Shown: positions 19,840 to 21,290 of the stretch, piece by piece
Layout of the letters: the number at the start of each line of letters is the position of its first letter
Position numbering within the stretch: position 1 is the stretch's first letter
Assembly: GCA_963702895.1 (NCBI GenBank)
Contig: OY969767.1
Span: 160,001-224,000 of the forward strand
Reading direction: 5' to 3'
From: an uncultured Elusimicrobia bacterium
GTDB taxonomy: Bacteria; Elusimicrobiota; Elusimicrobia; 2-01-FULL-59-12
DNA length: 64,000 nucleotides
Position numbers and translations under genes: made by a program
Notes under the pieces: model-generated
What the model was told of the DNA's origin: nothing
What the model saw: only the letters and a program-made list of their open reading frames with translations
Databases searched by the model: none

Positions 19840-19995
19840 AGAGCCGTTATTATAACCTCAATTGTGGGATAAGACAGAGGATTAACCGGGAATATTCGTG
19901 CGCCAACGGAATGCGATCGTCACAGATCTCCTGACTTTGCTGTCCCCTCTCCCGCCGCAAGGCGGGAGAGCAACTGTGTTGTCAATAGGGGTCTT

Positions 19996-20949
19996 TTAGG
20001 CATGCGAAACCTCCAGAACTGCACAATGCCAATGGGTGTTGGTTCTGACCATGGTGTTCAAAATAATCAGAAGTTTACGCATGCATGCTGTCAGCGCGAC
20101 TTTGGTTTTTTTCCCATTGGCAATCAAGTGTTGATAGAACTTTTTGATCACAGGGTTGATGCGGATGGCTGTCAAAACTCCCATGTAAAGTGCCGAGCGC
20201 ACACTGGAGCGCCCTCCCCATATATGCCGAGTTCCCCGCATGACACCGCTATCCCAGTTTAGAGGGGCCACGCCCACCAGGCTAGCAATCTGGCGTCGGT
20301 TCAATTTCCCAAGCTCGGGGAGTTCCGCGACGAGGGTCCGCCCCAAGACCGGGCCAACCCCAGGGACGCTGCGAAGCGTATCCCGTTTTTGACTCAAATC
20401 AGGGTGGTCCCCCAGTCCCTTATCGATCTGATCATCAAGTTCATCCAGTTGCTCTTCTAGCCACGCGATGTGCTGTTCAATCTTAGTCTTCATCGCGACC
20501 GACACATGCTGCCGACGGTTGCGCTCCTGGACCAACATTTCCACCAAATCTCGTCGACGATTCATCAGCTCCTGCAGCGCTAAGGTCAGATCATCGGCCA
20601 GTGGTCGCGCTGGGGGTTTGAGTTTCTGACCAAAATCGGCCAACACACCGGCGTCGATCTCATCGGTCTTAGCCAAGCGCCCTGTGGCTTTCGCAAAATC
20701 GCGCCCCTGTCGCGGATTGATCACCGAAGTCGCTATCCTCGCCTTGTTCAAGGCCTTAACCAGTGGTCTTTCCCAACCGCCCGTGGCTTCAATCACTACG
20801 CCGGCGACTTGCATCGTCGCCAAACGACGCACGATCTGCCGAATTCCAAGCCGGTTGTTTGCGGTCCGCCAACGTTGGCCGCCTGGCACAACTGCCGTTT
20901 CCAATAGTGCTTTCGAAATATCAACTCCCGCCCAGATTTCTTCAGACAT
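19996..20949 (-). CDS. IS110 DEDD recombinase/transposase
   Basis: GVDISK, IEATG, KTDEIDA (DEDD), SVPGVG and DSG serine; ATG 20949 with AAGAGG RBS. Confidence 0.95.
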
Positions 20950-20970
20950 GATTGGCCTCTTATTCAGTAC

Positions 20971-21114
20971 AGCCCGACCTTGCATCATCCGAGCTCGCGG
21001 CTGGCGCGGCTCCGGCAACTGTTCGGGCTTAACCGCATTCTGAACGTAGCGACCTTGCTCTCCACAGTCTCGGCGAACACCGGGCCTAGGGTAGGACGGT
21101 CTACTACCTTCAGA
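20971..21114 (-). ncRNA. Predicted bridge RNA (target-binding loop 21039-21114, donor-binding loop 20971-21029)
   Basis: Two stem-enclosed internal loops holding TCCTACCCT/GGAGAG (target guides) and ACAGTTGCC/ATGCAAG (donor guides). Confidence 0.8.
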
Positions 21115-21290
21115 AGAATTTTGACATACAAGGGTTAGGGTGAGGGCACGTTCATTCCTCTCGACGAAAGTCTGCCCTCACCCCGCCCTCTCCCACGTCC
21201 CGCGGGAGAGGGAGCACATGGGCAGTCGAATTATCCGGTTTAAGAGAGTATGCCGATGGGCACATAGGCCTAGAATCGCGCGAAGTTGAG

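Follow-up and report, generated by a model that had tools for sequence, protein, structure and literature searches.

An intact IS110-group element of the IS621/ISCro4 type, very probably guided into BoxC-like repeats of an Elusimicrobia genome

The bridge-RNA mechanism of IS110-group elements has been published (PMC11208160, PMC11208158, PMC13626964). The systems closest to the locus described here are IS621 of E. coli with its 177-nt bridge RNA (PMC11208160, PMC11208158, PDB 8WT6), ISCro4 (PDB 9T56) and IS622 (10.1101/2025.05.14.653916), and ISPpu10 of Pseudomonas putida (10.64898/2026.03.19.712850). In IS621, a mismatch that occurs naturally at target position 4 is tolerated (PMC11208160). 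A 5' stem is part of its RNA consensus, yet deletion of this stem lowers activity only slightly (PMC11208158), and its dispensability has also been described in 10.1101/2025.05.14.653916. Long seekRNAs of 145-170 nt are known (PMC11187229), and in a 2026 preprint 32,190 bridge RNAs were modelled, many of them with deviating structures (10.64898/2026.10.21.760802).

The window, a stretch of 64,000 nt from an uncultured Elusimicrobia bacterium, very probably carries an intact bridge recombinase element of the IS110 group that belongs to the IS621/ISCro4 type and is guided into BoxC/TM repeats (Table 1). Recombinase domains, CT cores and a junction promoter are common to this element and IS621, as are the location of the RNA in the left end, the order of target loop and donor loop, the A-NNNN-G anchors, a discontinuous right donor guide, the handshake bases, a palindromic repeat as target and a natural mismatch to target position 4. 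In contrast to IS621, the RNA is predicted to be about 30 nt shorter and to be devoid of the 5' stem-loop, the left arm, measured between anchor G and core T, spans 9 instead of 10 nt, the right target guide has 6 nt, donor positions 6-7 are TG instead of AT, and BoxC/TM takes the place of the E. coli REP element as target. Compared to ISCro4 and IS622, the stem is predicted to be naturally absent and the target is a different one. The element resembles ISPpu10 in its CT core, its REP-type target and a left guide that is tolerant at distal positions next to a strict right guide, a property measured in ISPpu10. In ISPpu10 a 5-bp stem immediately 5' of the target acts as structural gate, whereas the candidate partner found here is 41 nt away. 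An IS110 clade (loci L001-L122) that has ACAGTTG-CT-TGTAT as donor, and in which P0002 and P0003 are the nearest proteins (68%), shares donor, promoter, RNA architecture and the loose distal left guide, and several of its members reside in the same repeat family as the element of the window. This element differs from the clade in the distance between -35 box and core (15 versus 19 nt), a short right guide and longer inner stems.

Table 1. Positions of the element, its RNA, the target repeats and further elements of the genome (window positions unless G000:C1 is given)
Feature	Position	Strand	Remark
IS110-group element, both CT cores included	19969..21132	-	copy comparison
Copy B	G000:C1 130279-131440		identical to window copy A
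Copy C	G000:C1 1125546-1126707		identical to window copy A
Left CT core	21131..21132	-	
Right CT core	19969..19970	-	
Right donor half TGTAT, start of left end	21126..21130	-	clade consensus
Left donor half ACAGTTG, end of right end	19971..19977	-	clade consensus
Recombinase ORF, 317 aa	19996..20949	-	Pfam PF01548 and PF02371
-35 hexamer TTGACA of circle-junction promoter	19980..19985	-	predicted
-10 hexamer CAAAAT, TG-n before it	21118..21123	-	predicted
Bridge RNA, about 146-149 nt	20964..21111	-	predicted, as are its start and end; no space for 5' stem-loop
Left target guide arm T-CCTACCCT	21088..21096	-	immediately after conserved A-GACC-G anchor
Target-binding loop, inner stem-loop	21066..21086	-	one C-A mismatch in base stem
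Right target guide GGAGAG	21058..21063	-	7-nt arm; one base shorter than most relatives
Target-loop handshake guide CA	21056..21057	-	complementary to donor positions 6-7 (TG)
Left donor guide ACAGTTGC	21015..21022	-	
Donor-binding loop, inner stem-loop	20991..21012	-	
Right donor guide AT-(GAT)-GCAAG	20979..20988	-	discontinuous
Donor-loop handshake guide GT	20977..20978	-	G able to pair with target C7
Interrupted BoxC/TM type-A repeat, left arm	21133..21147	-	left target CCTAACC 21133-39
Interrupted repeat, right target CTCCC and hairpin	19945..19968	-	
Inverted partner repeat	21174..21212	-	41 nt upstream of target; type-B-like pair member
End of shared tail behind two palindrome families	19882..19893	-	imperfect inverted mate 21227-21242; putative MITE-like frame
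Empty repeat pair	7930..8038	-	one TT-core and one CT-core ACC site
Second IS110-type element (L018-L022)	G000:C1:90683, 152686, 445433, 504738, 1715616		
IS1111-like copies (L023-L027)	G000:C1:672045, 2232410, 2428030, 417195, 646172		

The element, its recombinase and its copies

The genome (G000) is a single contig of 2.72 Mb and contains three copies of the element, which is 1162 bp long (one core counted). Copies A (window), B and C showed zero differences from core to core. Both ends are formed by the CT core without long terminal inverted repeats, and the left end (181 nt from core to start codon) exceeds the right end (25 nt from stop codon to core). On the minus strand the junctions read CCTAACC-CT-TGTAT (left) and ACAGTTG-CT-CTCCC (right). 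Both junctions and all motifs named in a preceding reading of the sequence alone (in the following, sequence-only reading) were recovered at their minus-strand positions. Judged from its sequence, the element is intact, probably recently active and of the IS110 RNA-guided kind. An assignment to the IS1111 group, which is marked by a long right end with the seekRNA and by sub-terminal inverted repeats, was rejected on the basis of the right end of only 25 nt and the predicted RNA in the left end.

The recombinase possesses both the RuvC-like DEDD domain and the Tnp domain with its conserved serine, and scored 204 bits against the NCBIfam model of IS110 RNA-guided transposases (NF033542, cut-off 140). 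Its sole matches among solved structures were the IS621 chain (E 9e-42) and the ISCro4 chain (E 4e-42). D10, E54, D96, D99 and S234 align with the DEDD residues and the catalytic serine of IS621, and wedge residues are present as Y255, M256 and L259. Since the sequence likeness to solved structures was already strong, no structure prediction was made. Protein family, catalytic residues, CT cores and the two-loop left end bear out the classification as an IS621-like bridge recombinase that the sequence-only reading had put forward.

In the donor ACAGTAT-CT-TGTAT that the sequence-only reading had quoted for IS621, positions 6-14 are the same as the residues given in PMC11208158; positions 1-5 (ACAGT) were not found in the text searched.

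The neighbours of the window copy are a gene for a ZIP zinc transporter on one side and a short ORF lacking any Pfam match on the other. In window 16226-19839, genes for a Zn/Mn ABC binding protein and permease (plus strand) are convergent with the ZIP gene (minus strand) adjoining the element. Neither orphan bridge-RNA copies in the element-free genome (four short chance matches) nor the recombinase in 10 searched genomes of the same family, mostly fragmented, were found; the best outside match was in G060. The contigs of one DNA sequencing run covered left junctions only and revealed no joints; as this run may stem from the source material, they were not counted as evidence. Two further kinds of elements were observed in the genome. 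A second IS110-type element is present in five identical copies with a shared block of 1269 bp; its insertion sites belong to another palindrome family, of the CGTC type. Two IS1111-like elements that are related to each other (3 and 2 copies) have sub-terminal inverted repeats and long right ends that adjoin the end of the tail shared by two palindrome families.

Bridge RNA, guides and junction promoter

Folding of 20950-21130 yields a pair of loops enclosed by stems (z = -2.6; 3 of 200 shuffles were as good). For covariation, listed as a check in the sequence-only reading, a named structure was placed on 40 related left ends, taken from 63 available references (the mis-cut L033 was left out), and the stems were found to covary: 95% of the cells were paired and 19 of 25 pairs carried two-sided changes. 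None of 500 shuffles reached this value, and slid controls were paired at 35-48%. RNAalifold alone missed the inner stem of the target loop, which was named by hand for this comparison. A search of Rfam returned no family in 19500-21700, apart from one chance match (E 0.94).

Each guide in this RNA is preceded by an A-NNNN-G anchor, a landmark of IS621. The target loop carries TCCTACCCT at 21088-96 (minus strand), GGAGAG is present as the sequence-only reading had it, and the left donor guide agrees with the donor at 8/9 positions if the C following ACAGTTGC is included. For the right donor guide, the letters ATGCAAG do occur at 20979-85, but alignments of homologs and the likeness to the discontinuous guide of IS621 argue for 20988-87 as the conserved AT, with three bases looped out. 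Contiguous ATGCAAG would thus be a coincidence of this copy. A handshake pair, overlooked before, is present: CA can pair with the TG of the donor, and G with C7 of the target. The CA behind the right target guide complements donor positions 6-7 and thus fixes the register independently. When dinucleotide shuffles of the left end were scanned for the exact matches of the four guides anchored at the core (5, 6, 8 and 4 nt), these turned up singly in 12%, 15%, 0.12% and 47%, and jointly in 0 of 20,000.

Guide-target matching was followed across homologs. Locus searches with single proteins yielded 3 and 5 loci; alignment of 40 of the 120 listed proteins led to 79 genome loci and 29 viral loci, to which 8 further loci were added. 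Both ends were available for 86 loci (the three own copies counted), most of them with the same donor. Four partial proteins among L001-L135, L140 and loci without an end are not part of these 86. After removal of two loci with cut flanks, duplicates and the unparsed loci L003, L005, L032, L034, L058 and L081, 65 unique element-target pairs remained, many of them kin (many Dehalococcoidia). The length of the left arm was chosen for maximum matches at positions 5-9, which inflates the rates there, and 11 loci were re-parsed by a second rule. The right guide matches the target in 56-65 of the 65 pairs, depending on the position, and the first handshake base is C in all 65. For the left guide, matches at positions 1-9 amount to 27, 26, 66, 82, 91, 92, 97, 97 and 78%. 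Six of nine positions match in 19 pairs and five or fewer in 12, so that the 6/9 of the window element represents the modal value. As for the relaxed left guide of the sequence-only reading, loose distal pairing is the norm of the clade (about 26% at positions 1-2) rather than a novelty.

For a second set, elements were selected solely by their right guide; 27 candidate loci were reduced to 14 by dropping 13, and L194 was scored on its second, duplicated left end. The right target arm of the window element has 7 nt versus 8 nt in 64 of the 65 pairs and in 14/14 pairs of this set, which makes the short right arm nearly private. A 12-bp target loop, with both arms one base shorter, was consequently discarded as a family trait, the left arm being 9 nt long in 48/65 pairs. 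Tandemly duplicated end segments were noticed in L031, L033, L083, L194 and L227 and possibly result from repeated or half-site recombination. L192 sits 12 nt upstream of a site which matches its own left guide better than the occupied one does.

In the linear element no promoter-like site was found. The joined circle sequence gives TTGACA and CAAAAT separated by 18 nt, as had been proposed for circularisation. Among 70 unique left ends, 60 have a -35 box (spacer picked among 16-18), in 55 cases 19-20 nt from the core with the -10 box inside the donor half. In the other five, including the window element, the -35 box is nearer to the core and a -10-like hexamer is shifted downstream; four of these five keep an A..T -10 box at 17-18 nt. 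The distance from the end of the -10 box to the anchor of the target loop is 16 nt in 5 of 56 parsed left ends (window element, L031, L047, L065 and L082) and by eye about 15 nt in L005, while most other ends have 40-53 nt. This short distance leads to the prediction of an RNA of 146-149 nt that lacks the stem. With the promoter at its predicted place, the leader would comprise 2 nt; the accessory 5' stem-loop of the IS621 consensus was not found. The compact RNA of about 145 nt without 5' stem postulated in the sequence-only reading is hence retained as a prediction (about 147 nt), but not as a novelty, since 5-6 of the 56 left ends have the same and the stem is dispensable in IS621. Such a stemless short RNA is predicted to be not unique but common to about a tenth of the relatives. 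In the literature searched for compact or stemless bridge RNAs, the phrase 'compact bridge RNA' was not found.

Target repeats and choice of site

The reconstructed empty sites are CCTAACC-CT-CTCCC for copies A and C and CTTCACC-CT-CTCCC for copy B, each in a different copy of the hairpin repeat. Mapping of the other copies, which had been suggested as a check, thus placed 3/3 at the equivalent site nnnnACC-CT-CTCCC. The flanks of the three copies diverge within 10 nt of the right core. For the hairpin family 82 matches were counted, versus 2 and 1 in two crude shuffles, and the element-free genome contains only 55 ACC-CT-CTCC sites. That the RNA is aimed at a family of host palindromes, as the sequence-only reading had proposed, is in line with these 3/3 copies and with guide-target matching in the 65 pairs; the BoxC/TM identity of this family had been missed.

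By its sequence, the target repeat matches the BoxC/triplex-motif family. The three-block design of C-rich and G-rich segments is common to it and to the BoxC/PIT/TM intrastrand-triplex repeats (Holder 2015, PMC4666352), whereas the first loop has 9-12 nt here and 3-6 nt there. The strict E. coli BoxC/TM consensus (first loop 3-6 nt) has 0 matches in the genome; the repeats are therefore BoxC-like rather than strict TMECO. A relaxed consensus (first loop up to 16 nt, second 3-4 nt) yielded 27 matches, including the three reconstructed sites. The type A motif has a TTA second loop, and inverted pairs of unlike types are described (PMC4666352); this TTA loop is exactly the site filled in copies A and C. 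For E. coli, an intrastrand triplex was shown with oligonucleotides, and transposase remnants were looked for near these repeats without success (PMC4666352). In the papers searched, no link of boxC or intrastrand triplexes to IS110 was found. Related elements sit in the same repeat family in other phyla.

The copy at 7930-8038 was confirmed to be empty and to read CCTGACC-TT-CTCCC, but it makes a poor control because its second hairpin has an empty GACCACC-CT-CTCCC. Among 62 three-block sites, 3 of 32 with a CT core and 0 of 30 with a TT core are filled. With P about 0.13 (hypergeometric) the difference is not significant, and the TT core was rejected as the cause of empty sites.

Several observations concern the surroundings of the repeats. 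A tail of about 60 nt (window 19882-19940) follows both palindrome families at about 22 places in the genome, and its inverted mate left of the repeat pair suggests a MITE-like frame around the repeats. At G000:C1:939244-939330 a single hairpin has left and right sides like the outer flanks of the repeat pair of the window, as if the middle had been deleted between the repeats. As for RAYT as partner of the repeats, only one weak Y1_Tnp match was obtained. The single DUF559 gene of the genome (G000:C1:1904956-1905273, L275) has arrays of BoxC-like repeats on both sides. BoxC-like hairpins within 250 nt were found at 9 of 30 DUF559 loci of the class (L275 and L286-L314; six on both sides) versus 2 of 54 control stretches, where kin loci are not independent. 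The DUF559 protein may be a RAYT-like partner of the BoxC-like repeat. Titles and abstract openings of the literature searched for DUF559, endonuclease and inverted repeats contained no such link. A short GIY-YIG nuclease gene (window 45875-46090) has no palindromes of either family nearby, and CGTC-type repeats were near 2 of 7 GIY-YIG loci checked in the genome.

Only three insertion events are present in the genome. Seven sites that would pair fully in ungapped register (7 Watson-Crick and 2 wobble pairs) are empty, while the filled sites have 5-6/9 Watson-Crick pairs. Plain ungapped pairing thus does not rank the filled sites first. Beyond pairing, the complex might prefer repeats with an inverted partner about 41 nt upstream, i.e. 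a hairpin, cruciform or triplex context. Such a partner occurs at 6 of 22 hairpin ACC-CT-CTCC sites, all three filled ones among them, and 0/16 partnerless sites are filled (P = 0.013, post hoc on three events). Removal of the target stem-loop of ISPpu10, which left integration at 44% (10.64898/2026.03.19.712850), provides a precedent. However, three of the six partnered sites are empty, and an upstream partner of at least 12/14 nt was present in just one of the 23 left flanks of relatives that share the right guide. We therefore regard this preference as tentative and rather doubtful.

Alternatively, the guide may be gapped, with an 8-nt CCU-ACCCU pairing with target positions 1-3 and 5-9 and DNA base 4, the most variable one of the repeat, looped out. 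In this register the element-free genome has only two sites with 8/8 pairs, both filled (P about 0.013 among the 22 hairpin ACC sites, post hoc), but copy B reaches only 7/8. T is found at position 3 in all three filled sites versus 7 of 32 CT-core repeat sites. The six partnered sites (partner 41-42 nt upstream) are exactly the six with T3 and A5, and hence the gapped and the structural explanation are inseparable. By eye L136, L137 and L140 fit the gapped register; L138 does not, L139 is ambiguous, and L136-L140 were chosen by a guide pattern modelled on the window element. Across homologs the ungapped register gives more distal matches (113 versus 59 in the 65 pairs, 24 versus 17 among the 14 elements picked by the right guide alone), with one perfect gapped fit in either set, and C-rich repeats easily produce shifted matches. 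Overall, a looped-out base appears unlikely. Quite improbable is also the wider scenario of an 8-nt guide skipping the hypervariable BoxC base within a minimal stemless RNA of about 147 nt, in an IS110 lineage that is a dedicated BoxC parasite across phyla and possibly structure-gated. The word 'bulge' was absent from the two papers searched for it, and 'DNA bulge' from all 25 papers listed for that term.

Identical copies in one repeat subfamily with similar flanks could also stem from a single insertion that subsequently spread by recombination or gene conversion between repeats. This is very unlikely, as the flanks differ directly beside the cores (CCTAACC versus CTTCACC to the left, three different loops in the hairpins to the right) whereas the copies match completely between the cores, and as guide-target matching holds across the clade. 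That the protein alone recognises the hairpin repeat, with incidental guide-like matches to a low-complexity target (12% and 15% of shuffles for the single target guides), is hardly credible given the joint shuffle result, guides that change with the targets across homologs and the RNA dependence established for the family.

Proposed mechanism and implications

All catalytic residues, the CT cores, three identical copies at one and the same repeat position, and the complementarity of the four guides and the handshake bases to target and donor speak for RNA-guided insertion into the repeats. By analogy to IS621, rare excision would yield a circle, in which the joined ends would form a sigma-70-type promoter for a bridge RNA of about 147 nt starting from the foot of the target-loop stem. 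Within a recombinase tetramer, ACAGTTG-CT-TGTAT would be paired by the donor loop and the repeat by the target loop, and the tetramer would cut at the CT cores via phosphoserine intermediates prior to strand exchange. The handshake bases possibly form 0 pairs before and 3 pairs after exchange, which would favour insertion over excision; this effect is proposed by analogy with PMC13626964. Specificity would mainly rest on nine core-proximal base pairs (ACC-CT-CTCC), with the distal left positions loosely read as in the clade. Repeat targeting in 3/3 copies, guide-target matching and stem covariation thus agree with the sequence-only reading in that the known bridge-RNA mechanism is probably at work.

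This mechanism is already published, and the element serves above all as a clean example of it from nature, to which BoxC as target family and the trimmed guide RNA add little. As a compact scaffold, the short bridge RNA, predicted to be stemless by nature, is a candidate, and if the gapped pairing were true, off-target prediction for bridge editors would have to allow DNA bulges. What is added to the biology of these repeats is a mobile element aimed at the BoxC-like family, a family without assigned function.
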